Sequence record: JX560968
Strand: one strand, 5' to 3'
DNA from: Escherichia phage EC6
Length of the DNA stretch: 64,000 bases
Position 1 is the stretch's first letter, and the number at the start of each line of letters is the position of its first letter. The notes below the pieces were generated by a model, which did no database searches, was not told where the DNA came from, and worked only from the letters and a program-made list of their open reading frames with translations. Below are positions 6,656-64,000 of this stretch, in pieces. A program made the position numbers and the translations under genes.

Positions 6656-12054
<5,399 letters not shown>

Positions 12055-14685: not shown

Positions 14686-15861
14686 ATGGCAGTAGGTGAA
14701 ATTCAAATTAGTGCCTTGCCACAAGCGGCCTTACCAGTTGATTTAAGTGATATCTTCCACCTTAAGCAAGGTGTTGAAGATAAAAGATGTACGCTTGAAC
14801 AGTTGTTAGCACCTCACGCATCTCTGAGGAATAACCCTCATGGTGTAACTAAATCACAAGTTGGTCTTGATAATGTTATTAACTCTCTTCAATTAGTTGC
14901 AGCTAATAACTTATCAGACATTGTGAATGTTGCTGAGGCAAGAGCAAATCTACAAATTATGTCGTCAGAGGAAGTGAATAACTTAATTCAGCAACATATT
15001 GACGACAAAAGTAACCCACACAATACAACGAAAGCACAGGTTGGTTTAAGTAATGTTCAGAACTGGACAACATCTAATCTGTACAATGAAGATGCTGATA
15101 AGTATGCTACCGCGAGAGCAGTGAATAATTTATACAAAGCTATCCAAACATCATATCCAGTAGGGACTATTCATCTATCTGTTAACTCTGCTAACCCGTC
15201 CACTTACTTGCTTTGTGGAGGTACTTGGGAGTTAGTTTCTAAAGGTAGGGCGCTTGTTGGTTATGATACAGAAGCTAGACCTGTTGGTTCAACGTTCGGT
15301 TCTCAGACTGTAGCATTAACAAATAATAATTTACCAGCACACACCCACTCTATCTATTTAACAGGTGGTGGTCATACACACTCTGCAAGTGTATCTATCT
15401 CTAGTTTTGATTATGGTTCAAAGAGTACATCAACTTTTGACTACGGTACGAAGGCAACTAACAGTGCTGGTGCTCACACCCACACATTTAGTGGAACGAC
15501 AAGTAATGAGGGTAACCACAACCATAGAGTACCTCTGAGGGGTAATGATAGAAGTGGGTTAAATGCTATTACCGCATCTGCTGATGCTGGGGTTGGTAAT
15601 GCTTCGTATACTGATTTAGCTGGTGCTCACACCCATAGCTTCTCAGGTACAACTGCATCATCTGGTGCTCATAGTCATACTGTTGCAATTGGTGCTCACA
15701 GCCACACTGTTAATATTGGTTCACACAGTCATACGGGCACTGTTACTGTTTCTAGCTCTGAGCATACACACTCAGGGACATCTGGTTCTGTTGGTGGTGG
15801 TCAAGCTTTCAGTGTTGAGCAGCCATCTTTTGTAGTATATGTGTGGCAGAGAACAGCTTAA
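14686..15861 (+). CDS. tail fiber protein with His-x-His-rich C-terminal tip
   Basis: Repeated NPH(G/N)xTK(S/A)QVGL motifs; C-terminal AHTHSFSGTT, AHSHTVAIGAHSHTVNIGSHSHTG repeats (HxH boxes as in metal-binding fiber tips); ends ...AFSVEQPSFVVYVWQRTA. Confidence 0.5.
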   Translation: MAVGEIQISALPQAALPVDLSDIFHLKQGVEDKRCTLEQLLAPHASLRNNPHGVTKSQVGLDNVINSLQLVAANNLSDIVNVAEARANLQIMSSEEVNNLIQQHIDDKSNPHNTTKAQVGLSNVQNWTTSNLYNEDADKYATARAVNNLYKAIQTSYPVGTIHLSVNSANPSTYLLCGGTWELVSKGRALVGYDTEARPVGSTFGSQTVALTNNNLPAHTHSIYLTGGGHTHSASVSISSFDYGSKSTSTFDYGTKATNSAGAHTHTFSGTTSNEGNHNHRVPLRGNDRSGLNAITASADAGVGNASYTDLAGAHTHSFSGTTASSGAHSHTVAIGAHSHTVNIGSHSHTGTVTVSSSEHTHSGTSGSVGGGQAFSVEQPSFVVYVWQRTA

Positions 15862-15870
15862 TTTCTTTAC

Positions 15871-15893
15871 AGGGGCTTTATAGCCCCTTTTAA
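15871..15893 (+). terminator. rho-independent terminator
   Basis: AGGGGCTTTATAGCCCCTTTT hairpin plus T-tract. Confidence 0.55.
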
Positions 15894-15907
15894 GAGGAAA
15901 ATTTATA

Positions 15908-17533
15908 ATGGCAGATTACAAATTGAGTCAATTAAACTCAATCGACACAATTCGTTCAGAAGACCTATTGCACATCAGAGTTAAGAAAAGACCTGAAATG
16001 TTGGGTGACGAAGACCGTAGAATGACCTATCAAGACTTCTTAGCTTCTTTCAAACTAGAAAGGTTTGTTCAGATTGCTGGGAGCACTATGACGGGGGATT
16101 TAGGTATTGTCAAGTTACTTTACGGTGGTAAGGTAGTATTTGACCCTACAGATTCTTCTGAGATTACTCTTGGGGATATTTTAAAGACTTTTAAAATCAA
16201 CTCAAATGGGCTTAAACTCACTATTGCAGATGCCACAAGGTCAGCAACTGTTTATCATACTTTGAATAAACCAAGTCCTAATGAACTTGGCATGAGAACT
16301 AATGAAGAGAATGATGCAAGATATTCAAGGCTTGCTGTTACAAATAACTTCAGTATTAGGCAAGCAATTGTAACTGATGGTGAGCAGTTAACTCTTAAGA
16401 AGGCAACCAATACAGGTGCTTCATATATTCAAGGTAGAGATGCTAATAACCAGCAAACTTGGTATGTTGGACAGGGAAATGCAAACAGTACTAATGTTTA
16501 TTTGTACAATCATGCTACTGGTGCAATGTTAACCCTTGATGCAACAGCAGCATTTAACAAGTCACTTAGAATCGTTGGTCAAGTTCAACCTTCGGATTTC
16601 TCTAACTTAGATGCTAGATACTTCACTCAGACAGTCGCTAATCAGAGATTTGCACAGTTAGCTGGCAATAATACTTTTACAGGTGCTAATACATTTAATA
16701 ACTATATCAGTGTGAACTCTAATGCTGCTGCTATCGTGCTAAAAAATAAGTCTGCTAATGAGTCTTTGTACATCCTAGCAAAAGATGTTGAAAACAATAA
16801 TCTGTGGTTTATTGGTAAAGGTAGTGCAAATGACAATATCACATTTTATGATTACAAGGGCAATACTTCTATTGTATTAAACTCGTCTGGTGCTGCATTC
16901 AGCAAGACTGTAAAAATCACTGGTCAAGTCCAACCTTCAGATTGGACTAACATTGACTCTAGATATATTCCGGCAGCTACTTTGAGCAATCTTGCTAAAA
17001 TTAATGTAGCTAACACATTTACCTCCCAGCAAATTATCCAAGCAAATGGTGAAGCTATTAGGCTAAAAAACTCTTCTGAGAACTCACCATTGTATATCAG
17101 AGCACAGGACAACACTGGTGCTTATAGGTGGTATGTAGGTAATGGCTCGGGGGGTGATGATGTCACCATCCGCAATCACAAGACAGATTGTGAGGTTATC
17201 CTATCTAGTGTCGTTGCTATTAATAAAACATTAAGCATCACTGGTCAAGTTAAACCCTCAGATTTCTCTAACTTAGATGCTAGATATTACACGCAATCTA
17301 CCGCAAACTCTAGGTATATGCTTGCTTACTCTTCTGGCAGTGGTACAGAGGTGGGTGAGAGTGATGGTATTGTTTGGAATGCTAAAACTGGTCTGTATAA
17401 TGTGTATGATAAATCTGGTGGCGCAACACAGCTAGTCTACCATATGTATCAGGGTGCAAGTTCTACACCATCTGCACAGTTTAAGTTTATCTACAGGAAT
17501 GGTGGTAGTTTTTTACAGGACAGCACGAGATAG
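15908..17533 (+). CDS. tail fiber protein with three internal ~110-aa repeats
   Basis: Each repeat ends ITGQV(Q/K)PSD(F/W)(S/T)N(L/I)D(A/S)RY; near-identical DNA copies at 16576-16620 and 17243-17287. Confidence 0.55.
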   Translation: MADYKLSQLNSIDTIRSEDLLHIRVKKRPEMLGDEDRRMTYQDFLASFKLERFVQIAGSTMTGDLGIVKLLYGGKVVFDPTDSSEITLGDILKTFKINSNGLKLTIADATRSATVYHTLNKPSPNELGMRTNEENDARYSRLAVTNNFSIRQAIVTDGEQLTLKKATNTGASYIQGRDANNQQTWYVGQGNANSTNVYLYNHATGAMLTLDATAAFNKSLRIVGQVQPSDFSNLDARYFTQTVANQRFAQLAGNNTFTGANTFNNYISVNSNAAAIVLKNKSANESLYILAKDVENNNLWFIGKGSANDNITFYDYKGNTSIVLNSSGAAFSKTVKITGQVQPSDWTNIDSRYIPAATLSNLAKINVANTFTSQQIIQANGEAIRLKNSSENSPLYIRAQDNTGAYRWYVGNGSGGDDVTIRNHKTDCEVILSSVVAINKTLSITGQVKPSDFSNLDARYYTQSTANSRYMLAYSSGSGTEVGESDGIVWNAKTGLYNVYDKSGGATQLVYHMYQGASSTPSAQFKFIYRNGGSFLQDSTR

Positions 17534-18278
17534 GTATGGTTTTGAGCAGGCATGGGCTAAAATCTATACAGACCAAGATAAACCAACCCCTTCAGAGATT
17601 GGTGCATACACTAAAGCTGAAACTGACCAGAAGATTGCAGAAGCAATCAGTGACTCTACAGACTTGAATAAAATCTATCCAGTAGGTATTGTAACGTGGT
17701 TTAACAGTAATGTTAACCCTAATACAGCACTTCCTGGTCTAACTTGGACGTACCTGAATAATGGTGTTGGTAGAACTATCAGAATTGCAGCAGCAAATGG
17801 TTCAGATGTTGCTACAACTGGTGGTTCAGACTCTGTAACGTTATCTGTTGGTAACTTACCTTCACATACGCATAGCTTCTCTGCTACCACTTCATCATTT
17901 GATTATGGTACTAAGACTTCTAGTACAACTGGTAACCATAACCATAACAGAGGTACTATGGAAATCTCAGGTGCATTTGGTTGGTTCAGAAGTGACAATA
18001 GTTCATTCTACACTGCGAGTGGAGCATTCGTGATGGGGAGCAGTCAGGCTTCGCATGGCTTCACAGGCTCTAACTTCACTTATGGTGCTCCTGTTGATTT
18101 CCACGCGTCAAGAACTTGGACAGGTGCAACCAACACAACAGGTAACCATAGCCATACTGTAGGTATTGGTGCTCACAGCCACACAGTTAGTGGTAACACA
18201 GGTGGTACTGGTTCTGGTTCAGCATTTAGTGTTACTAACCAGTTCTACAAGTTAATGGCTTGGGTAAGAACTGCTTAA
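17454..18278 (+). CDS. tail fiber C-terminal tip domain (separate ORF, or 3' part of 15908 gene after a +1 frame change at T6 run 17509-17514)
   Basis: HxH boxes (SHTHSFSATT, NHNHNRGT, NHSHTVGIGAHSHTVSG) and C-terminus ...AFSVTNQFYKLMAWVRTA paralogous to tip of 14686..15861; no convincing own RBS/start. Confidence 0.45.
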   Translation: MQVLHHLHSLSLSTGMVVVFYRTARDRYGFEQAWAKIYTDQDKPTPSEIGAYTKAETDQKIAEAISDSTDLNKIYPVGIVTWFNSNVNPNTALPGLTWTYLNNGVGRTIRIAAANGSDVATTGGSDSVTLSVGNLPSHTHSFSATTSSFDYGTKTSSTTGNHNHNRGTMEISGAFGWFRSDNSSFYTASGAFVMGSSQASHGFTGSNFTYGAPVDFHASRTWTGATNTTGNHSHTVGIGAHSHTVSGNTGGTGSGSAFSVTNQFYKLMAWVRTA

Positions 18279-50761: not shown

Positions 50762-50784
50762 AGGCTCCTACGGGAGCCTTTTTA
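50762..50784 (+). terminator. rho-independent terminator
   Basis: AGGCTCC-TAC-GGGAGCCT then TTTTAATTT. Confidence 0.6.
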
Positions 50785-50800
50785 ATTTCTGGAGAAGACT

Positions 50801-54879: not shown

Positions 54880-54896
54880 TAAGTAATTTCTTAAAA

Positions 54897-54918
54897 GGCT
54901 GCTTCGGCGGCCTTTTTT
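54897..54918 (+). terminator. rho-independent terminator with UUCG tetraloop
   Basis: GGCTGC-TTCG-GCGGCC then TTTTTTATTT. Confidence 0.55.
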
Positions 54919-54979
54919 ATTTGTATTTTGTGCAGAGTGCTGTATAATTGTTGTCACGATAAACTAAACAGGAGAACCA

Positions 54980-56688: not shown

Positions 56689-56710
56689 AGGCTCCTTCGG
56701 GAGCCTTTTT
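56689..56710 (+). terminator. rho-independent terminator with UUCG tetraloop
   Basis: AGGCTCC-TTCG-GGAGCCT then TTTTTC. Confidence 0.6.
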
Positions 56711-56729
56711 CATTTCAGGAGATTGTTAA

Positions 56730-57240: not shown

Positions 57241-57506
57241 CAGAGAATGAAGACACTTTCTATGTAGAAGGGTACTTACTGCTACCACGACCAAAAGAAA
57301 CTTATATGCGGGTTGATTTCTCACCAACCATTATGGATAATGTGATGTGTCATATCTTTATGCAAGGTGTCACAGCACAGCTTAATCATGTTGGTAAAGA
57401 GTGCAAAATAAAGGTTGACACTCATCCAGAAATCAAAGAGAATCACTACACATGGTTCTTACCAGACTCTAAAGAAATCTTAGCAATTCTTAAAACGAGG
57501 AAATGA
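57237..57506 (+). CDS. hypothetical protein
   Basis: 89-aa ORF. Confidence 0.3.
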   Translation: MTENEDTFYVEGYLLLPRPKETYMRVDFSPTIMDNVMCHIFMQGVTAQLNHVGKECKIKVDTHPEIKENHYTWFLPDSKEILAILKTRK

Positions 57507-57817
57507 TTATGCAATTCCAGCCAACAAATCGTGGATTTTCTTATGCAGAATTTAAAGATGCTAAAGGAGAGATTTGTACTTTACAAGAAAGTTCATCATA
57601 TGAACCATGTATCTGGTTAGGTGCTAAAGAGGTCTCTGTTCAGTACCTAGATGGTGGCTGGAAAACACTTGATATCCCAGCATTAGTAGGCAAAGATTTT
57701 GTAGGTAACCAAAGAATGAAACTCAACCAAGAACAGGTGAAAGAGTTGTTACCGTACCTTCAATACTTTGCTGAAAATGGTGAATTACCAACAGAGGAAC
57801 TTACAAATGCAGATTAA
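57503..57817 (+). CDS. hypothetical protein
   Basis: 104-aa ORF. Confidence 0.3.
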   Translation: MIMQFQPTNRGFSYAEFKDAKGEICTLQESSSYEPCIWLGAKEVSVQYLDGGWKTLDIPALVGKDFVGNQRMKLNQEQVKELLPYLQYFAENGELPTEELTNAD

Positions 57818-58130
57818 TGGAAGAGACTTTGTAGCCGTTTACTACGAGAAAGATAAAGAAGTTGGCGTAGCACAAGTATCTTATGGTAATGGTAAGTGGT
57901 TGTATGGGACAATCGCAGTAGTCGGGGCAAGAAGTGATACAAAAACTTTTAAAGATTGTGTTGACCTTCTTGAAGAATCCATCCACAATCATTGGTGTCT
58001 GATATGGATGACTGACAACGAAGTGGTAGAACGCTTCAAAAAGATTGGTATCAACATTGATAGCATTGAGCATGTTGATTTATATGAACTAACCGAAAAG
58101 GTAAGCTATGAAAGCTCTAGAGGTAATTGA
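57807..58130 (+). CDS. hypothetical protein
   Basis: ATG 57807 overlapping upstream stop. Confidence 0.3.
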   Translation: MQINGRDFVAVYYEKDKEVGVAQVSYGNGKWLYGTIAVVGARSDTKTFKDCVDLLEESIHNHWCLIWMTDNEVVERFKKIGINIDSIEHVDLYELTEKVSYESSRGN

Positions 58131-58335
58131 TAAAGACACTGGAGAAGTCACATCAGCATGTGTTTTCGTTAGTAACGACACAGTGATACCATTTTACAAT
58201 CTCGATAGTTTTAGCTTTACAGGGATAACTCCAGAAGAATACTTTGAAGACCTTACCTTTGCCAGAATTTCTATAGATACATTCTATAAATGCTTCTATG
58301 ATGAAGGTAAAGAATTACGAGAAACTGAACTATAA
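58108..58335 (+). CDS. hypothetical protein
   Basis: 75-aa ORF. Confidence 0.3.
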   Translation: MKALEVIDKDTGEVTSACVFVSNDTVIPFYNLDSFSFTGITPEEYFEDLTFARISIDTFYKCFYDEGKELRETEL

Positions 58336-58548: not shown

Positions 58549-59334
58549 ATGGGTATTGTAAAAATAATCAATGGTGATATCTTTTCCGCCTTTGATAAAG
58601 GTAAGTTTGACATCATTGGTCACGGCTGCAACTGTATGAACTTAATGGGTGCAGGTATCGCTGACAAGATTTCTAAACTTTACCCAAAAGCATATGAGAC
58701 CGATACAGAAGTTTATTTGTATGCAGGTGGCATAGGCCACAAACCCTGTGAAAATTTACTAGGTAATTTCTCTGTAGCACGTTTAGAACAAGGCCGTATA
58801 GCTAACCTTTACACTCAGCTTAAGACTGGTAAAGATGCCCGATATAGTGCTTTAGAGTCATCTTTGAAACAGCTTAACAGATACTGTGAAGTCAATCAGT
58901 TGAAGAAAGTTGGGTTACCTATGATTGGTGCAGGTATCGGTGGGCTAGACCCTCAAGCAGTCACCGTTATCATTAATCAGGTGATGAAGAGTGTAGATGT
59001 GTATCTGTATGTCTACGAAGGAGAGATGTACCACAAGTTACGCTCAGGTTGGAAGAACTACTGTGAACCAGAATACTTTGCAGGTGTAGTAGTATTCACG
59101 GATGATGCAGTTACCCTCTTCAGACGAAGAAAAGGTAAGATACATCAAAGTAACCCTCCGGTTGAAAAGATGTCTCTAAGTAACGCTCTAGTTACCCACC
59201 TGTCGAAGAGCAATCACAGGATTGCAGTAACATTTGGCAGTGATGCAGATACATATATCTATGCAAGAACTGATGAGGATGTTGAGGAAATTTTCTCTTC
59301 ACAGGAAGTTACCTTCTTAGACGCAAAGAACTAA
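58549..59334 (+). CDS. macro-domain-like protein (ADP-ribose binding/processing, putative)
   Basis: N-terminus INGDIF...FDIIGHGCNCMNLMGAGIADKI aligns by eye with macro motif GDIT...DAIVNAANxxLLGGGGVDGAI. Confidence 0.45.
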   Translation: MGIVKIINGDIFSAFDKGKFDIIGHGCNCMNLMGAGIADKISKLYPKAYETDTEVYLYAGGIGHKPCENLLGNFSVARLEQGRIANLYTQLKTGKDARYSALESSLKQLNRYCEVNQLKKVGLPMIGAGIGGLDPQAVTVIINQVMKSVDVYLYVYEGEMYHKLRSGWKNYCEPEYFAGVVVFTDDAVTLFRRRKGKIHQSNPPVEKMSLSNALVTHLSKSNHRIAVTFGSDADTYIYARTDEDVEEIFSSQEVTFLDAKN

Positions 59335-59365
59335 GATACTCTGTAGAATATTCACAATAGACTAA

Positions 59366-59411
59366 GCCTTTCTTATCTGGGAAATCTTTCAGGTAAGGAG
59401 GGCTTTTTCAT
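59366..59411 (+). terminator. imperfect long hairpin with U-tract (terminator-like)
   Basis: AGCCTTTCTTATCTGG...CAGGTAAGGAGGGCT then TTTTTCATTTC. Confidence 0.35.
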
Positions 59412-59592
59412 TTCAGGATTGTGCAGGTAGAGTTCTGTAGAGAAATCTGTAGAGAAAATTTTGAACTCCAAAGAGAAAATTCATTTTCAAACTGTGCAGG
59501 TAATCTCCAAAGAGCTTTTTCATTTTCAAAACGTGCAGATAAAAATCAGGTCGGGCAAGAAAAATCATTTTAGAATTGTGCAGGTAGGTGGG
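59404..59592 (+). repeat. array of four ~26-nt direct repeats (consensus TCATTTTCAAAAnTGTGCAGGTA)
   Basis: Copies at 59404-59430, 59477-59503, 59516-59543, 59560-59590 with 40-70 nt spacing; extra AGAGAAA sub-repeats. Confidence 0.6.
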
Positions 59593-59763
59593 TGTAGGTG
59601 GGGATGTCGCCATTTCTCACAAGGCTACCACATCTGGAAATAAAAGTCAACAGAAAAATTTGTAGCGGATTGAAAAATAATTCTTGATTGTAGTTCTGTT
59701 TTGTGGTAGTCGCGTGCGCCCGTTTCATTACAGTTTTTTGCAAAAATATTTTTAAAATTTTTC

Positions 59764-59859
59764 TTGACTCCTCGAACGGGTTTTTATAGTATTTGCATCA
59801 GACGGGGAGGGAGTGACCTTCCCCACTAAATAACTAACCTTAAACTAGGAGATTCAAAA
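59764..59859 (+). promoter_or_regulatory. promoter + 5' stem-loop + SD cassette (type I variant)
   Basis: TTGACT-N17-TAGTAT, then GGGGAGGGAGTGACCTTCCCC hairpin, then AACTAGGAGATTCAAAAATG. Confidence 0.55.
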
Positions 59860-60240
59860 ATGGCTTATCGTGCACCTAAATTCATCAATAAAGACAACTT
59901 CCGCAACGCACTGGAAAAATCACTTGATGAGAACTTTACAGGTCAGATTATTATTGTTCACGCATATAATTTTAAGTATGATATTAACGGGAATAAAATC
60001 AATCATTACACGGCAACAATGGTAGATGGTACACTATCAAGTGAAAAAGCCGTACTGAATGCACTTGCAGGACGTGGCAAAAACCTGATAAAATGCAATA
60101 AGAGACGTTATCAAGGCGGCGCATATGGTTATGATGATGCTGTTTACCATCTTGAAAATATGGGCTATCAGGTGGAAAAAGCCGGAATATCTCAAATAAT
60201 TGGCAGTGATGGATATGTGACAATTTTCAAAATTAAATAA
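59860..60240 (+). CDS. early hypothetical protein
   Basis: 126 aa; own promoter/stem-loop cassette and AGGAGA RBS. Confidence 0.45.
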   Translation: MAYRAPKFINKDNFRNALEKSLDENFTGQIIIVHAYNFKYDINGNKINHYTATMVDGTLSSEKAVLNALAGRGKNLIKCNKRRYQGGAYGYDDAVYHLENMGYQVEKAGISQIIGSDGYVTIFKIK

Positions 60241-60247
60241 AAAGTAC

Positions 60248-60329
60248 TTTACAAGGGGCTTATAGTTCGATAAAGTAAGCCCCAGATAAAGAGCTTTACC
60301 ACTAAATCCTTAAACTAGGAGATTCAAAA
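60248..60329 (+). promoter_or_regulatory. promoter-hairpin-SD cassette (type II)
   Basis: TTTACA-N17-TAAAGT with GGGGCTTA...TAAGCCCC hairpin spanning spacer and -10; then CCTTAAACTAGGAGATTCAAAAATG. Confidence 0.5.
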
Positions 60330-60842
60330 ATGAAAACTGTAGACGCTACCTTTGAAGTTGTAAAAGAAAAATTTTCCATCATTTACGAAGCGGTTAACTG
60401 CTACGAAGCAAGTCATAGCCTTGATAATTGGGAATTTACAGATAATCATCAAGGTGGTGTTACTGTTAAAAATCCTAACTATCAGCGTAATGAGTTTAAA
60501 TATGCAATCCCTTTACATTACAGCCTGAAACAGCTTTCGAGTGACTATGCAAAACAAGGACGGGCAAATCCATCAAAAGAGGCTTATATCAGCTTACAGG
60601 AAGAACTAGAAAGGGATTTGGAGGCTTCAGAGTATAATATCTCTGCAAAAGTTGTGGATGTAAACGGGAAAACGGTTTTAGACAGCTTTTACATTGGTTA
60701 CGCTTTCGATTGGTGCTACAGTGACGGCGATGATTTAGATGAAAGACTAAAAGAGGAAGTGAACAACGCAGACGCAGAATCTGAAGTATTAGAACGCTTG
60801 GAAGCCTTAAAAGATTCAGTGATGAATATCTTTAAAAATTAA
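60330..60842 (+). CDS. early acidic hypothetical protein
   Basis: 170 aa, acidic C-terminal half (DGDDLDERLKEEVNNADAESE). Confidence 0.45.
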   Translation: MKTVDATFEVVKEKFSIIYEAVNCYEASHSLDNWEFTDNHQGGVTVKNPNYQRNEFKYAIPLHYSLKQLSSDYAKQGRANPSKEAYISLQEELERDLEASEYNISAKVVDVNGKTVLDSFYIGYAFDWCYSDGDDLDERLKEEVNNADAESEVLERLEALKDSVMNIFKN

Positions 60843-60858
60843 ATTAAGAGGGAACACC

Positions 60859-61191
60859 ATGTTAATGATGGGTATCACTGCAATCATCGCCATTATAGCA
60901 CTTTATAAGGCTTACAGCGCCTATAATCTGGCAAGTAAGGCAATCACGCAACAGGTTAACAATAATCTCGTGATGAGCTTTCTCGAGCGTTTAAGCGATG
61001 AGCAATTGAAACGGTTAGAAATGAGCTTCAGATTTCAATCAAAAACTTATCAAATCAGCGACATTTTCAAAGAGGATTTTCAGCTTGTCGATGATTATAA
61101 CGCACTGATAAATGCTTTAAATATCAGTGACTTAAAAGACTACTATGCTGTAATTGTTCAAGAAATGAGCAAACGAAAAAATTCCTCTTGA
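60859..61191 (+). CDS. early membrane-anchored hypothetical protein
   Basis: 110 aa, N-terminal TM MLMMGITAIIAIIALY. Confidence 0.4.
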   Translation: MLMMGITAIIAIIALYKAYSAYNLASKAITQQVNNNLVMSFLERLSDEQLKRLEMSFRFQSKTYQISDIFKEDFQLVDDYNALINALNISDLKDYYAVIVQEMSKRKNSS

Positions 61192-61281
61192 TTTTGGTTT
61201 TTAAAGCAAGTAAATTACTAATCAACGGGGAGGGGATGACCTTCCCCACTAAGTAAAACCCTTAAACTAGGAGATTCTAAA
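61188..61281 (+). promoter_or_regulatory. promoter + 5' stem-loop + SD cassette (type I)
   Basis: TTGATT-N17-TAAATT, ACTAATCAACGGGGAGGGGATGACCTTCCCCACTAAGTAAAACCCTTAAACTAGGAGATTCTAAAATG. Confidence 0.55.
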
Positions 61282-61554
61282 ATGTATACTACTAACAACG
61301 GTCGCACCTTAAACGTAACCCTTCGCCACTATGTGAACGGTGTAATGCACTTCGAAGATTTACAAGCTGAACAACATATTCTGAATTGGCAACTTGCAGG
61401 ATTCCAAAAAACTGCTACCGGATACGGGAAAAAGATTCCAACTAGTTGGAAAGTATACTACGAAGGACGTTTGCGCAGAATTTATCAGGATGTTTACAGC
61501 AATAGCGCAACAAGTTACATCATGGTAAAAGGTAAAAAATTGCACTTAGTGTAA
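61282..61554 (+). CDS. early hypothetical protein
   Basis: 90 aa. Confidence 0.4.
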   Translation: MYTTNNGRTLNVTLRHYVNGVMHFEDLQAEQHILNWQLAGFQKTATGYGKKIPTSWKVYYEGRLRRIYQDVYSNSATSYIMVKGKKLHLV

Positions 61555-61559
61555 AGTAC

Positions 61560-61641
61560 TTTACAAGGGGCTTATAGTTCGATAAAGTAAGCCCCAGATA
61601 AAGAGCTTTACCGCATTAACCTTAAACTAGGAGATTCAAAA
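61560..61641 (+). promoter_or_regulatory. promoter-hairpin-SD cassette (type II)
   Basis: Near-identical copy of 60248..60329. Confidence 0.5.
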
Positions 61642-62046
61642 ATGGCTATCAATAAACGCGAATTATCAATTTTAAAAGCACGTTTGACCGTTAACCGGAT
61701 TAATGTTATTACGTCATCAGCACCAGACGAGACACTGCAAAACATTATTGGGAAGATTCAAAGTGTTATCTTAGACGTTGAAAGCGTAAAAAACTCACTG
61801 ACTGACGTTGCAGCAGGTATCACCTTAAACGGTGCACAATATGAAATGGCTGACATGTTAGGCAAATCTAAGGTAATGAATAAAGAGCTTGATTTGAAAA
61901 TGTTCAGATTCGCCGTAAAAGTATGGTTATCCGTCGATTATGACGCAAATTTTGCAATCGCTGACTTTTTCGCAACATGGTTACAACGTAATTTGACAAA
62001 TCACGATTTTCGTGATATCTGCGATGCAATTTATGCAGAACTTTAA
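61642..62046 (+). CDS. early hypothetical protein
   Basis: 134 aa. Confidence 0.4.
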   Translation: MAINKRELSILKARLTVNRINVITSSAPDETLQNIIGKIQSVILDVESVKNSLTDVAAGITLNGAQYEMADMLGKSKVMNKELDLKMFRFAVKVWLSVDYDANFAIADFFATWLQRNLTNHDFRDICDAIYAEL

Positions 62047-62061
62047 AAAAAAAAACTTTTG

Positions 62062-62156
62062 TTGACACTGGTTTTTAAATAGATTAAATTGTCAATCAAC
62101 GGGGAGGGAATGACCTCCCCCACTAAGTAAAACCCTTAAACTAGGAGATTCAAAAA
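62062..62156 (+). promoter_or_regulatory. promoter + 5' stem-loop + SD cassette (type I)
   Basis: TTGACA-N17-TAAATT; hairpin GGGGAGGGAATGACCTCCCCC (compensatory T-to-C change gives a perfect stem). Confidence 0.55.
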
Positions 62157-62357
62157 ATGGCTATTATTAACGGTTTAAATATTGAGACTACTCACATCAA
62201 AGACATTAAAGTTGGCGATATAGTCCTTTTTCACGGCGTAGAAAAAACCGTCACCGCAAAGGATATCAAAGAGGATTCATTCATGGGCCGGTCTCTCTTC
62301 GGTGATTCGTATTGCTTAGGTTACCGTGCAGTTTTAAAAGTTGTCAAAAATAACTAA
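62157..62357 (+). CDS. early hypothetical protein
   Basis: 66 aa. Confidence 0.35.
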   Translation: MAIINGLNIETTHIKDIKVGDIVLFHGVEKTVTAKDIKEDSFMGRSLFGDSYCLGYRAVLKVVKNN

Positions 62358-62365
62358 TAAAGTAC

Positions 62366-62447
62366 TTTACAAGGGGCTTATAGTTCGATAAAGTAAGCCC
62401 CAGATAAAGAGCTTTACCACTAAATCCTTAAACTAGGAGATTCAAAA
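62366..62447 (+). promoter_or_regulatory. promoter-hairpin-SD cassette (type II)
   Basis: Third near-identical copy (TTTACAAGGGGCTTATAGTTCGATAAAGTAAGCCCC...). Confidence 0.5.
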
Positions 62448-62990
62448 ATGAAATGCTTTCACGGTACTACTCAAGAAAACTTCACCAACCTGATTAATAA
62501 CGGCGATAAGCCATCAGGTGCATGGAATTGTTCGGATATGGACGGCAATTTTTACGTGTATCCAGAAAATAAAATCTATGGCGACGATGCGGAAGAGATA
62601 GCATCCGAAGGTATCCAGCAAGCTCTGGGCAATGCCACTATCACCGCAGCTTTCCAGATGAAAACTCAAAACATTGTTATCTTGGAACTTGATATTCCAG
62701 AAGACGAGTTAAATGATGATTATTCTTGCGATAATATGTCTGGCGTGGCAAGTTTTACGGAATATTTCGATTTAAACTGGATTAAAAAGGTTTACACCAC
62801 TGAATTTAATGCCATGTTTTCACCATTTTGTCTGCCTTCACTGGATAACCCGAATTTAAACTATATTGATGAGTCTCTGGAACTCCTCGCTAAAAGCGTT
62901 CAACAGTCCGACAGTATTCAGGTTTTTTGTGACATCATGGACACACTGACGGAAAACATCATAGAAAGAGATTTGAAGGGCTTTTTCTGA
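62448..62990 (+). CDS. early acidic hypothetical protein
   Basis: 180 aa, Asp/Glu-rich. Confidence 0.4.
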   Translation: MKCFHGTTQENFTNLINNGDKPSGAWNCSDMDGNFYVYPENKIYGDDAEEIASEGIQQALGNATITAAFQMKTQNIVILELDIPEDELNDDYSCDNMSGVASFTEYFDLNWIKKVYTTEFNAMFSPFCLPSLDNPNLNYIDESLELLAKSVQQSDSIQVFCDIMDTLTENIIERDLKGFF

Positions 62991-63022
62991 AAACCTATAC
63001 AATCACCTTATAAACACTATTC

Positions 63023-63043
63023 AGCCCCTTGCAGGGGCTTTTA
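63023..63043 (+). terminator. rho-independent terminator
   Basis: AGCCCCT-TGC-AGGGGCT then TTTT. Confidence 0.45.
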
Positions 63044-63056
63044 AAGGGCTTTAATC

Positions 63057-63290
63057 ATGCTTACAACCGTTTACCTTATCCTTTCCATCTGTAATGGACA
63101 TTCATGTGATTTTAAAGGTCTCGAGGAGTTTACAGGGAGTAAAGAAAATGCTATTCAGGTTTGCCAGATAGCAAGACAAGACTACCCCGCCAGTGATGAT
63201 ATTCAATGTTACTTTAAGACAGAAGACAGCGACGGCGTTTATTTTGACAGCGTTGATGGTCAATATGAAATTATCATTGATAAAGACTAG
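63057..63290 (+). CDS. early hypothetical protein with hydrophobic N-terminus
   Basis: 77 aa; MLTTVYLILSICNG. Confidence 0.35.
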   Translation: MLTTVYLILSICNGHSCDFKGLEEFTGSKENAIQVCQIARQDYPASDDIQCYFKTEDSDGVYFDSVDGQYEIIIDKD

Positions 63291-63380
63291 ACAAGCCGGA
63301 TAAAAGTCTGTAAATTACTAATCAACGGGGAGGGGATGAACTTCCCCACTAAGTAAAACCCTTAAACTAGGAGATTCAAA
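63288..63380 (+). promoter_or_regulatory. promoter + 5' stem-loop + SD cassette (type I)
   Basis: TAGACA-N17-TAAATT overlapping upstream stop; GGGGAGGGGATGAACTTCCCC hairpin. Confidence 0.5.
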
Positions 63381-63722
63381 ATGGCTTATGTAACTGTAAT
63401 TACTGATAAAGCTGATTCATCTTGGCCAACTCAAGTAAGCGATAAGATGACACCTATGCAGTGCCTAAAATACTTTGAGCAATGGAATAAAGGAGAAGGT
63501 GTCAGCCCCTTTCAAGTGATGCAGGTTATCCATGTAAGCGATAAAGGGATTAAAACAGTTTTAAACAGTGAACACTATACAACACGATTTGAAACGAGAT
63601 GTAAAACGATGAAACTGTTACGCGAATCCGGTTATTCTCATATTGCCGCGCTAATCTGGGATGACTTGCTAAAAAATCAGCGTATCAGCTACGTAAAACC
63701 TGAAAAAATATTCATCAGTTAA
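63381..63722 (+). CDS. early hypothetical protein
   Basis: 113 aa. Confidence 0.4.
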   Translation: MAYVTVITDKADSSWPTQVSDKMTPMQCLKYFEQWNKGEGVSPFQVMQVIHVSDKGIKTVLNSEHYTTRFETRCKTMKLLRESGYSHIAALIWDDLLKNQRISYVKPEKIFIS

Positions 63723-63754
63723 TCAATAACTTACAAAAAACTTCTAAAAAAGTG

Positions 63755-63783
63755 TTGACAATACCCCTTGACATTGGTAACTT
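63755..63783 (+). promoter_or_regulatory. sigma70-like promoter TTGACA-N17-TAACTT
   Basis: TTGACA 63755-63760; second overlapping TTGACA at 63768-63773. Confidence 0.35.
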
Positions 63784-63852
63784 TGTTCGAGGGGGTTTAT
63801 CTTAAAGGGATTCACTTAAAAGATTTCTTTAAAGATAAACTTAAAAAATTGC

Positions 63853-63946
63853 TTGCAATCAGATATCAAAACAAGTAAATTACTAATCAACGGGGAGGGA
63901 ATGACCTTCCCCACTAAGTAAAACCCTTAAACTAGGAGATTCTAAA
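63853..63946 (+). promoter_or_regulatory. promoter + 5' stem-loop + SD cassette (type I)
   Basis: TTGCAA-N17-TAAATT; GGGGAGGGAATGACCTTCCCC hairpin; AGGAGATTCTAAAATG. Confidence 0.5.
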
Positions 63947-64000
63947 ATGAACAAATTTCAAGCTATCAACTATATTCGTTCCGTCAATGTCATGTCTAAA
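63947..64000 (+). CDS. early hypothetical protein (3' end outside window)
   Basis: ATG after type I cassette; reads MNKFQAINYIRSVNVMSK to window end. Confidence 0.35.
   Translation, partial: MNKFQAINYIRSVNVMSK

Follow-up and report, generated by a model that had tools for sequence, protein, structure and literature searches.

We analysed a 64,000-nucleotide (nt) stretch of the genome of Escherichia phage EC6 (sequence record JX560968; one strand, hereafter the window) and found eight intergenic cassettes of ~90 nt, all on the + strand, between positions 59764 and 63949. One stands before nearly every gene of the cluster, and each would combine a promoter of the host sigma70 type with an AT-rich upstream stretch, a GC-rich hairpin and a 25-nt start block. 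The cluster is probably an array of accessory early genes in which self-contained cassettes serve both as expression units and as recombination linkers. This arrangement is of the type of the promoter-early-stem-loop (PeSL) elements reported in the T4-type phages RB49/phi1, T4/PST and KVP40/nt-1 (Arbiol et al. 2010, PMC2839356; Comeau et al. 2014, PMC4122927). A first-pass annotation of this DNA had likened the repeats to PeSLs and was essentially right in doing so, which would place a PeSL-type system in a second phage subfamily. Megablast of positions 59300–64000 matched 240 phage records, all but a few of them Felix O1-like myoviruses of Escherichia, Salmonella and Shigella, with GEP101, REP9 and VpaE1 as the top matches at ~90% identity, and assigned the window to Felixounavirus, subfamily Ounavirinae. 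The cassette region corresponds to open reading frames (ORFs) 14–23 of Felix O1.

The repeats are anchored by an exact 18-mer, CCTTAAACTAGGAGATTC, which occurred eight times, always on the + strand, at 59838, 60308, 61260, 61620, 62134, 62426, 63360 and 63925 (the last copy ends at 63942). Only 0.04 copies were expected, and none of 100 dinucleotide-preserving shuffles reached eight. Every copy stopped 4–6 nt short of the ATG of an ORF. Two types of cassette were distinguished. The three type II copies (ATGs at 60330, 61642 and 62448) were identical from AAAGTACTTTACA through GAGCTTTACC, while the five type I copies (ATGs at 59860, 61282, 62157, 63381 and 63947) had in common the hairpin GGGGAGGG-loop-CCTTCCCC, followed by ACTAAGTAAAAC before the block that both types possess. 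The count of eight cassettes with a nearly identical 3' block and that of three near-identical type II copies, both made in the first-pass annotation, were borne out. Its assignment of a TAAATT promoter to all five type I copies held for four of them, but the copy at 59764 reads TTGACT-N17-TAGTAT. The string TAAATT-nnnAATCAAC was common to four of the five. Neither the core motifs of the two types nor either allele of the 3' block occurred in the remaining 59.7 kb of the window, and none was present in the closest relative's genome over the ~24 kb that lie outside the window's coverage. The stop codon of the upstream gene often formed part of the promoter (TGAcac, TGAttt, TAGaca, TAAatt) or of the base of the type II stem (TAAAGTAC), so that almost all intergenic bases belong to a cassette.

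The type II copies are cassettes 2, 4 and 6 in order along the cluster. Cassette 2 (60241–60332) has an extended hairpin at 60241–60297, with the putative −35 box TTTACA (60248–60253) in the lower stem and the putative −10 box TAAAGT (60271–60276) in the apical loop, and a block (60308–60332) ending in the ATG of gene B; its predicted folding energy (dG) is −24.3, with a z-score of −4.8. The corresponding parts of cassette 4 (61553–61644) are the hairpin at 61553–61609, the −35 box at 61560–61565, the −10 box at 61583–61588 and the block at 61620–61644, which ends in the ATG of gene E. Cassette 6 (62359–62450; dG −25.1, z −5.3) has its hairpin at 62359–62415, its −35 box at 62366–62371, its −10 box at 62389–62394 and its block at 62426–62450, ending in the ATG of gene F. 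The constraint on these boxes was examined in 76 distinct variants from three Ounavirinae genera, taken from 43 IMG/VR loci and 13 GenBank genomes in addition to the window. The −35 box was TTTACA in 74 of the 76 variants, and the spacer measured 17 nt in 73; the three exceptions had 18 nt. At the −10 box, the first T and the A at position 2 were invariant (76/76 each) and the T at position 6 was present in 75/76, with 15 combinations at positions 3–5 (e.g., TAAAGT, TATCTT, TAAGAT, TACAGT, TAGTAT). Loop positions around the −10 box varied freely. A TAnnnT pattern held at a fixed 17 nt from TTTACA over 76 variants is the signature of a working sigma70 −10 box.

In type I, the repeat begins at the −10 box. 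The −35 regions are not repeats of each other and sometimes lie inside the upstream gene, and a TTGACA-like hexamer (TTGATT, TTGACA, TAGACA or TTGCAA) always occurs exactly 17 nt upstream of TAAATT. Cassette 3 (61188–61284) has a −35 box TTGATT (61188–61193) that overlaps the stop codon of gene C, the −10 box TAAATT at 61211–61216, a hairpin at 61227–61247 and a block at 61260–61284 ending in the ATG of gene D. Cassette 5 (62062–62159), where an A11 tract precedes the −35 box TTGACA (62062–62067), matches the consensus at 10 of 12 positions; its TAAATT is at 62085–62090, its hairpin at 62101–62121 and its block at 62134–62159, with the ATG of gene D'. The −35 box of cassette 7 (63288–63383), TAGACA at 63288–63293, contains the stop codon of gene G and is followed by TAAATT (63311–63316), a hairpin (63327–63347) and a block (63360–63383) ending in the ATG of gene H. 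Cassette 8 (63853–63949) consists of TTGCAA (63853–63858), TAAATT (63876–63881), a hairpin (63892–63912) and a block (63925–63949) that closes with the ATG of gene K; the window ends inside this gene. Cassette 1 (59764–59862) is a chimera that joins the first promoter of the cluster to a type I element, with the −35 box TTGACT at 59764–59769, the −10 box TAGTAT at 59787–59792, the hairpin GGGGAGGGAGTGACCTTCCCC at 59804–59824 and a block at 59838–59862 that ends in the ATG of gene A.

A scan for the sigma70 consensus flagged six of the eight cassettes, at 9–10 of 12 positions; the remaining two (TTGATT and TTGCAA, each N17 before TAAATT) matched at 8 of 12. The 25 nt upstream of the −35 boxes were 68–88% A+T (average 80%, compared with 61% for the window), and six of the eight cassettes had at least 80% A+T there, a level reached by 1.8% of random 25-mers. 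Taken on sequence features, promoter function is strongly supported. Reverse transcription PCR (RT-PCR) in the Felix O1 genome paper, although coarse, placed ORFs 16, 20, 21 and 22, all of which are cassette-driven, in the 5-min class. The same paper (2010) listed only five putative promoters, none of them in the cassette region. A further element was observed at 63747–63800, in the 224-nt spacer between genes H and K, where the arms ACCCCT and AGGGGGT flank the spacer and −10 box of TTGACA-N17-TAACTT and are followed by TTTATCTT. This may be a promoter of a third kind, enclosed by a hairpin, or else a terminator with a large loop; the sequence flanking it was conserved in relatives.

The cassettes fold overall with −15 to −25 kcal/mol (z −1.4 to −5.3), and the type II copies are the most elaborate, with a structure of ~20 bp made of helices of 5, 5 and 9 bp that are broken by a 1×1 mismatch and a 3×3 internal loop and extend over about two helical turns (−20 to −25 kcal/mol, z −3.8 to −5.3). 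This structure encloses the promoter: the lower stem and internal loop contain the −35 box, the apical loop the −10 box. The first-pass annotation had described a hairpin interleaved with the promoter, as found here, but the structure is longer than it stated, has three segments and also encloses the −35 box. Covariation was assessed in an alignment of 44 copies (35 of them distinct) over 19 pairs, of which 98.3% of cells were paired. Four pairs were altered on both sides, examples being double changes from GGGGCTTA/TAAGCCCC to GGGGTTTA/TAAACCCC or GGTGCTTA/TAAGCACC, from G-C to U-A in the lower stem and from U.G to A-U at the top. None of 500 shuffles reached the observed pairing or covariation score, and all slid registers dropped to 31–60% pairing. 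The covariation was found in both the lower and the upper helices and across three genera, and the structure was kept in Citrobacter phage Mordin (Mooglevirus) and Erwinia phage phiEa104 (Kolesnikvirus), with stems GGTGTTTA/TAAGCACC. Mordin has been reported to be ~47% identical to Felix O1 at the nucleotide level (Mordin announcement, PMC4611695), and phiEa21-4, of the same species as phiEa104, 51.8% identical to AYO145A (AYO145A announcement).

Such a structure could chiefly be an RNase III site that cuts read-through RNA into monocistronic mRNAs with protective 3' hairpins, the promoter being secondary. The type II element resembles the RNase III sites of phage T7, which are interrupted hairpins of ~20 bp between consecutive early genes in an array at the genome end that is transcribed by the host RNA polymerase. 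Its 5 + 5 + 9 bp geometry over about two turns is compatible with such a site, its covariation involves the lower and upper helices alike, and it too lies between consecutive early genes and would form only in read-through RNA; cleavage is here a prediction. The T7 sites differ in having no promoter, in not being near-identical repeats and in not being tied to gene gain or loss, and an RNase III site would leave unexplained why TTTACA is invariant, the spacing fixed at 17 nt and the TAnnnT pattern kept. As the principal function of the type II hairpin, RNase III processing is conceivable but doubtful, and an RNase III role and a promoter role can coexist.

The type I hairpin folded in all 54 copies compared, with 5–8 bp and a mean dG of −13.8, versus −4.5 for shuffles. 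Slid registers of this hairpin were still 66–81% paired because its arms are runs of G and runs of C. A change in the 62157 copy, which the first-pass annotation had taken as compensatory, proved to be a single T-to-C substitution, by which a G.U pair becomes G-C and the register shifts; it is one-sided and not double. Sense folds were 0.7–5.4 kcal/mol more stable than antisense folds, an advantage due to G.U pairs, and this gives modest support to a function of the hairpins in sense RNA. A search of Rfam 15 gave only two chance-level matches (20–21 bits, against gathering scores of 45–47). A mini-ORF in the type I leader (GGAGG-n2-ATG ACC TTC CCC ACT AAG TAA) was considered and rejected, as its ATG is absent in many copies (GATAA, TAAA and CAATAA loops).

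Stable hairpins of −15 to −25 kcal/mol placed exactly between a stop codon and the next start also suggest terminators or attenuators, with each cassette stopping upstream transcription and restarting it to give one unit per gene. The stem-loops of published PeSLs were indeed reported to terminate or attenuate transcription in reporter and sequencing assays (PeSL papers). Against this, neither hairpin type is followed by a U-tract, the sequences that follow being CCCCACTAAGTAAAAC (ACUAAG) in type I and CCCCAGATAAAGAGC or AGAUAAAG in type II, and a terminator scan of the region called no cassette hairpin. Without a U-tract, a terminator role is unsupported by the sequence. The type I hairpin, moreover, lies downstream of its own promoter and would abort its own transcript, and ordinary U-tailed terminators exist where needed, at 59364–59405 and 63035–63052. 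By the criterion of a GC-rich hairpin with an immediate U-tract, only 59364–59405 passed the scan in this region. We consider it rather unlikely that the hairpins are mainly terminators.

Both cassette types end in the same 25-nt block, CCTTAAAC-TAGGAG-ATTCAAAA-ATG, which has a 5-nt Shine-Dalgarno (SD) core, AGGAG, and an A/T-rich spacer of 8 nt. All eight copies terminate in TAGGAGATTC(A/T)AAA(A)ATG. Two alleles of the block, CCTTAAACTAGGAG and CCTAAA(C/T)TGGAG (CCTAAA(C/T)TGGAGATTC), were mixed within and between related genomes, and Erwinia phages carried a different block, CCCTTATAAAGGAAT. The second codon after a cassette start was often GCT or AAA. Specifically, the starts at 59860, 61642, 62157 and 63381 read ATGGCT(T/A)(A/T)T (Met-Ala-Tyr or Met-Ala-Ile), and two other cassette genes began with ATGAAA; these common early codons may represent either cassette homology that extends into the gene or selection for favourable second codons.

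Conservation of the block exceeds the needs of an SD sequence, reaching into CCTTAAAC upstream and ATTCAAAA downstream, and both cassette types use it. It might for this reason be a start-associated sequence (SAS) for a trans-acting factor, in which case the repeats would exist for co-regulation and not for recombination. Phage T4 offers an analogy for a factor that recognises such a block in its translational repressor RegA and its endoribonuclease RegB. The authors of the Mordin announcement independently made this comparison for a 26-bp repeat before eight starts, which they called 'reminiscent of start-associated sequences' of Cluster K mycobacteriophages (PMC4611695), and SASs have been proposed to act in translation initiation, possibly via a bound factor (Pope et al. 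2011, PMC3203893). The mycobacteriophage elements are short asymmetric AGGAG repeats a few nt before the ATG, in a single orientation, limited to the non-structural arm and placed ahead of unrelated gene families, with an inverted repeat (extended SAS, ESAS) before about half of the copies. The block likewise repeats an SD core 3–7 nt before starts, in one orientation, within the non-structural arm and ahead of unrelated genes, but its sequence is unrelated and the hosts and phage lineages are unrelated as well, so that this is resemblance and not descent. SASs are also only 13 nt long, with no reported tie to promoters and no link to indel boundaries, and the ESAS inverted repeats have little RNA-pairing support, whereas the type II hairpin covaries. 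The presence of two alleles within single genomes, together with the Erwinia block CCCTTATAAAGGAAT, makes a strict recognition site not obvious; no candidate regulator was identified, and the chimeric junctions described below would be left unexplained. An SAS-type function as the reason for the repeats is therefore, in our judgement, unlikely.

The recombination side of the proposed system was examined by comparing 11 Felixounavirus genomes (the window and the orthologous region of ten others), in which ORFs were called, proteins clustered and cassette types mapped. Gene slots followed the order I J A Q R B M C D E D' F G T U H K S/O N. The window contained A B C D E D' F G H K, Felix O1 contained J B M C D E H K N, and SapYZU01 contained I J A Q B M C D E D' F G H K S N; the remaining genomes had yet other combinations. 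Among the 11 genomes, I, J, A, Q, R, B, M, D'FG, TU, S/O and N showed presence/absence differences, and at least 10 slots were polymorphic in this ~6-kb cluster. Cassettes stood at both junctions of A, Q, B, D'-F-G, T-U, S/O and the I-J block. The check proposed with the first-pass annotation, that cassettes should bound gene gain and loss in relatives, was thus run, and cassettes were the boundaries of most events.

Several junctions appear to record exchanges within cassettes. BLAST breakpoints of relatives against the window fell in cassettes 1, 2, 5 and 7, where neighbouring high-scoring segment pairs overlapped by 19–78 nt, the expected footprint of homologous exchange. Two junctions were compared base by base. 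Cassette 1 of the window matches, on its left, the cassette that precedes gene I in GEP101 (first promoter and type I hairpin) and, on its right, the type II cassette that precedes gene A there, with the switch inside the common block; by this alignment it is chimeric and combines two GEP101 cassettes. Between E and H, Felix O1 carries just one type I cassette, whose left half matches cassette 5 of the window and whose right half matches cassette 7; in the window, these two cassettes enclose the 1.2-kb D'-F-G segment. Five private variants were common to non-orthologous type II copies in one genome (Felix O1 B/E, VpaE1 M/F, REP9 M/F, SP2 A/B/E and GEP101 A/E), against 0.37 expected; none of 5000 permutations, in which genome labels were shuffled within positions, reached this number. 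These shared private variants show that sequence has moved between cassettes.

A number of observations weigh against this reading of the cassettes as promoters and recombination linkers. On the expression side, the promoters match the consensus at only 8–10 of 12 positions, cassette ORFs 17, 19 and 23 peaked at 25 min in the Felix O1 RT-PCR, and no mapped transcript ends were found in the searchable literature for any Felix O1-like phage. The type I hairpin showed no significant covariation over its 54 copies. On the recombination side, R and I have no cassette on one side. Homogenisation measured globally was not significant for type II (7.10 differences between copies of the same genome versus 7.50 between genomes, P = 0.26) or for type I (P = 0.12), and general concerted evolution of the cassettes was dropped on these tests, the private-variant test alone being significant, and for type II only. 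The M module (cassette and gene) lies between B and C and is joined to C without a cassette on its right, and a 7-nt microhomology, TAAAGAG, accounts for the absence of M from the window. The cassette-free 7 kb upstream (52–59 kb) also held four indel sites at gene boundaries. Within the cluster, 'intergenic' nearly equals 'cassette', so breakpoints there are partly expected from selection for intact genes. Finally, gene order was invariant within Felixounavirus.

From some of these observations one could argue that the cassettes are simply good expression signals and that the indels arise by general short-homology or illegitimate recombination at gene boundaries. The four upstream sites, with overlaps of ~17 nt, the microhomology at M and the non-significant global homogenisation test all point that way. 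Two small genes of the cassette-free region, 57503–57817 and 58108–58335, were observed to have indel or replacement polymorphisms relative to SP2, REP9, Alf5 and VpaE1/HY02; the junction at 57503–57817 showed a ~17-nt overlap around the ribosome-binding site and start, and at 58108–58335 only short common stretches were found around the starts. However, ~11 polymorphic slots occur in ~6 kb of the cluster versus four in 7 kb upstream, the 19–78-nt overlaps coincide with cassette cores, and private variants have spread among paralogous type II copies (5 versus 0.37 expected). An account by expression signals alone seems improbable to us. The indels of the cassette-free region imply that exchange at gene boundaries is general and that cassettes raise its frequency about threefold without being required for it. 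For an invariant order, loss and homologous replacement are a better explanation than mobile modules that re-insert freely, and relocations (of M and of an I-like gene) were seen only in the comparison with Mordin and phiEa104. In these genomes, the data show modular gain, loss and replacement. The 'modular gene shuffling' of the first-pass annotation accordingly stands for gain and loss at cassettes, but not as true shuffling, since the order is unchanged within the genus.

Under the proposed model of combined expression units and recombination linkers, transcription from type I cassettes would initiate ~7 nt after TAAATT, leaving ~3–5 unpaired nt before the hairpin. Stem-loops at the 5' terminus are known to protect E. 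coli mRNAs from 5'-end-dependent decay, and the type I hairpin, near the 5' end, would shield the mRNA in this way. Initiation in type II would fall inside the 3' arm, so its own transcript would lack the hairpin, which could form only when transcription from an upstream start continues through the cassette. In such read-through RNA, its role would be that of an attenuator, an RNase III-type processing site or a protective structure at the 3' end, and it would insulate neighbouring units. Because the same 25–95 nt recur every 300–900 bp in direct orientation, the cassettes would also be substrates for homologous recombination machinery, and crossovers between cassettes would delete, insert or swap modules of cassette and gene with genes and expression signals intact. 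A more elaborate possibility, which we regard as quite unlikely, is that the GGGG...CCCC hairpins and the 25-nt start block are recognition sites of a dedicated factor, beyond passive homology. Such a factor may be a RegA/RegB-like phage repressor or RNase, or host RNase III, timing the set of accessory genes. It may otherwise be a structure-specific nuclease or recombinase, which would make the array an integron-like gene-capture platform, without an integrase, at the genome end.

The architecture of the cassettes fits the published definition of PeSLs, as the first-pass annotation had suggested. Both are intergenic cassettes of ~100 nt in which a stop codon is followed by an AT-rich stretch, a sigma70-type −35/N17/−10 promoter, a GGGG...CCCC stem-loop and an SD sequence with ATG. 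PeSL stem-loops either overlap the promoter boxes or fall between them, like those of type II, or follow closely on the −10 box, like those of type I, and the T4/PST consensus TTTACW-N17-TAYWAT matches the type II promoter. Both occur in plastic, ORFan-rich regions where the gene differences of relatives are bounded by cassettes, and in published PeSLs crossovers mapped between the −10 box and the ATG. Of the features of PeSLs, a sigma70-type promoter (here predicted), an AT-rich upstream stretch, a stable stem-loop, an SD sequence and ATG at the 3' end and a plastic, ORFan-rich location were found here; the host genome, however, is a Felixounavirus and not a T4-type myovirus. Further traits of PeSLs are the activity of the stem-loop as a terminator or attenuator and the excision of 'mini-circles' by recombination of cassette with cassette. 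In a non-T4-type phage, membership among PeSLs can rest only on architecture and behaviour, and not on descent. Other differences are that the cassettes of these Ounavirinae are confined to one cluster per genome, whereas PeSLs occupy several hyperplastic regions; that the hairpins here have no U-tract, which makes terminator activity doubtful; that the type II hairpin is long, has three segments, encloses the −35 box too and covaries; and that a single 25-nt start block is common to all cassettes. Lambdoid morons also resemble the modules described here, since they place an autonomous promoter and a small accessory gene between existing genes, as do the cassette and M between B and C. However, morons lack conserved flanking repeats and are thought to be inserted by illegitimate recombination (PMC2839356), whereas the repeated flanks here would serve as crossover sites.

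In the full-text literature, 'PeSL' returned only the two papers on T4-type phages and one unrelated mention. The Felix O1 paper (2010) gave 57-bp and 39-bp 'direct repeats' without interpretation, and no description of the cassettes was found in the other Felix O1-like genome papers that were checked. The PeSL-like naming appears to be new, with prior notice found only as these 'direct repeats' (Felix O1) and as the SAS-like 26-mer (Mordin).

The genes of the array in the window, all on the + strand, are A (59860–60240), B (60330–60842), C (60859–61191), D (61282–61554), E (61642–62046), D' (62157–62357), F (62448–62990), G (63057–63290) and H (63381–63722), followed by the truncated K. Two of them are without a cassette. 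Gene C starts 16 nt after B, and G is preceded by a terminator-like hairpin, AGCCCCTTGCAGGGGCTTTT (63035–63052, + strand), the only U-tailed hairpin inside the cluster, which was present in 9 of 10 genomes with G and altered in REP9. With no cassette and a weak SD sequence, gene G must rely on read-through. The nine genes fall in nine different PHROGs, all of unknown function, and even D and D' differ (3436 and 3623). A Pfam search of the cassette genes returned nothing over the cut-off and a sub-threshold CTD12 match for F, PADLOC gave one marginal match (PDC-S46, for E), and a sequence search of the PDB, made for B and F only, was uninformative. B, F and G are strongly acidic, with isoelectric points (pI) of 4.5, 4.05 and 4.1, and that of E is 5.35, in agreement with the earlier description of several of the products as acidic. 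A role in host takeover or anti-defence for this variable early array is plausible, although a guess.

Gene F is a homologue of gp107 of phage Bas63, which was conditionally more important on E. coli S17-1 in a knockout screen and is reported to resemble weakly the domain of RNA 2'-phosphotransferase that binds NAD (PMC11482910). It lies 3 kb from a gene at 58549–59334, just upstream of the cassette region, that is annotated as a phosphatase and contains a macro domain (Pfam Macro, 1.2e-7), a domain that binds or hydrolyses ADP-ribose. The proximity of the two hints at NAD/ADP-ribose biology.

The macro-domain gene is followed by an intrinsic terminator (59364–59405, + strand), which was found by the terminator scan, is equivalent to t13 of Felix O1 (Felix O1 Table 2) and parts the cassette cluster from the upstream operon. 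Between this terminator and the promoter of cassette 1 is a non-coding gap of 525 nt. Four direct repeats of ~31–38 nt (…TTTTCATTTTCAAAnnGTGCAGGTA…) were observed in this gap at 59399–59587, with spacings of 73, 39 and 45 nt, and may be binding sites or tandem signals. A direct terminal repeat was considered for the gap and rejected, as in the record of phage UAB_69 a direct terminal repeat of 618 bp is annotated at 9895–10512, ~480 nt downstream from the cluster's last gene; the equivalent position lies beyond the end of the window. By this annotation, the cassette array is transcribed towards the direct terminal repeat, and within ~0.5 kb of it. Elsewhere in the window, near-identical intrinsic terminators, AGGCTCCTTCGGGAGCCTTTTT, occur in the upstream early operon at 50762–50795, 54896–54929 and 56689–56722 and match t2 and t5 of Felix O1, and direct repeats of 69–76 nt lie inside the tail-fibre region (15644–18189 and 16554–17295), as has been reported for gp76/gp77 of Felix O1.

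The analysis provides the first predicted promoter map for a region of Felix O1-like phages in which the 2010 paper found no promoters. These phages, which include the BASEL phage Bas63, are widely used in typing, biocontrol and therapy directed at Salmonella and E. coli, and the ~6-kb hotspot is a place to seek strain-specific accessory genes with possible functions in host takeover or counter-defence. Phage engineering could also draw on the cassettes as insulated expression units that are ready for use and as safe sites for insertion. With its −35 box in the stem and its −10 box in the loop, a promoter nested in a covarying hairpin is a compact model for joint function at the DNA and RNA levels. 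If confirmed, the array would mean that regulatory cassettes acting as recombination linkers are not peculiar to T4-like phages and arose convergently in a second, unrelated group of virulent myoviruses, and it would strengthen the view that phages arrange their accessory genes as plug-in modules between repeated expression signals.

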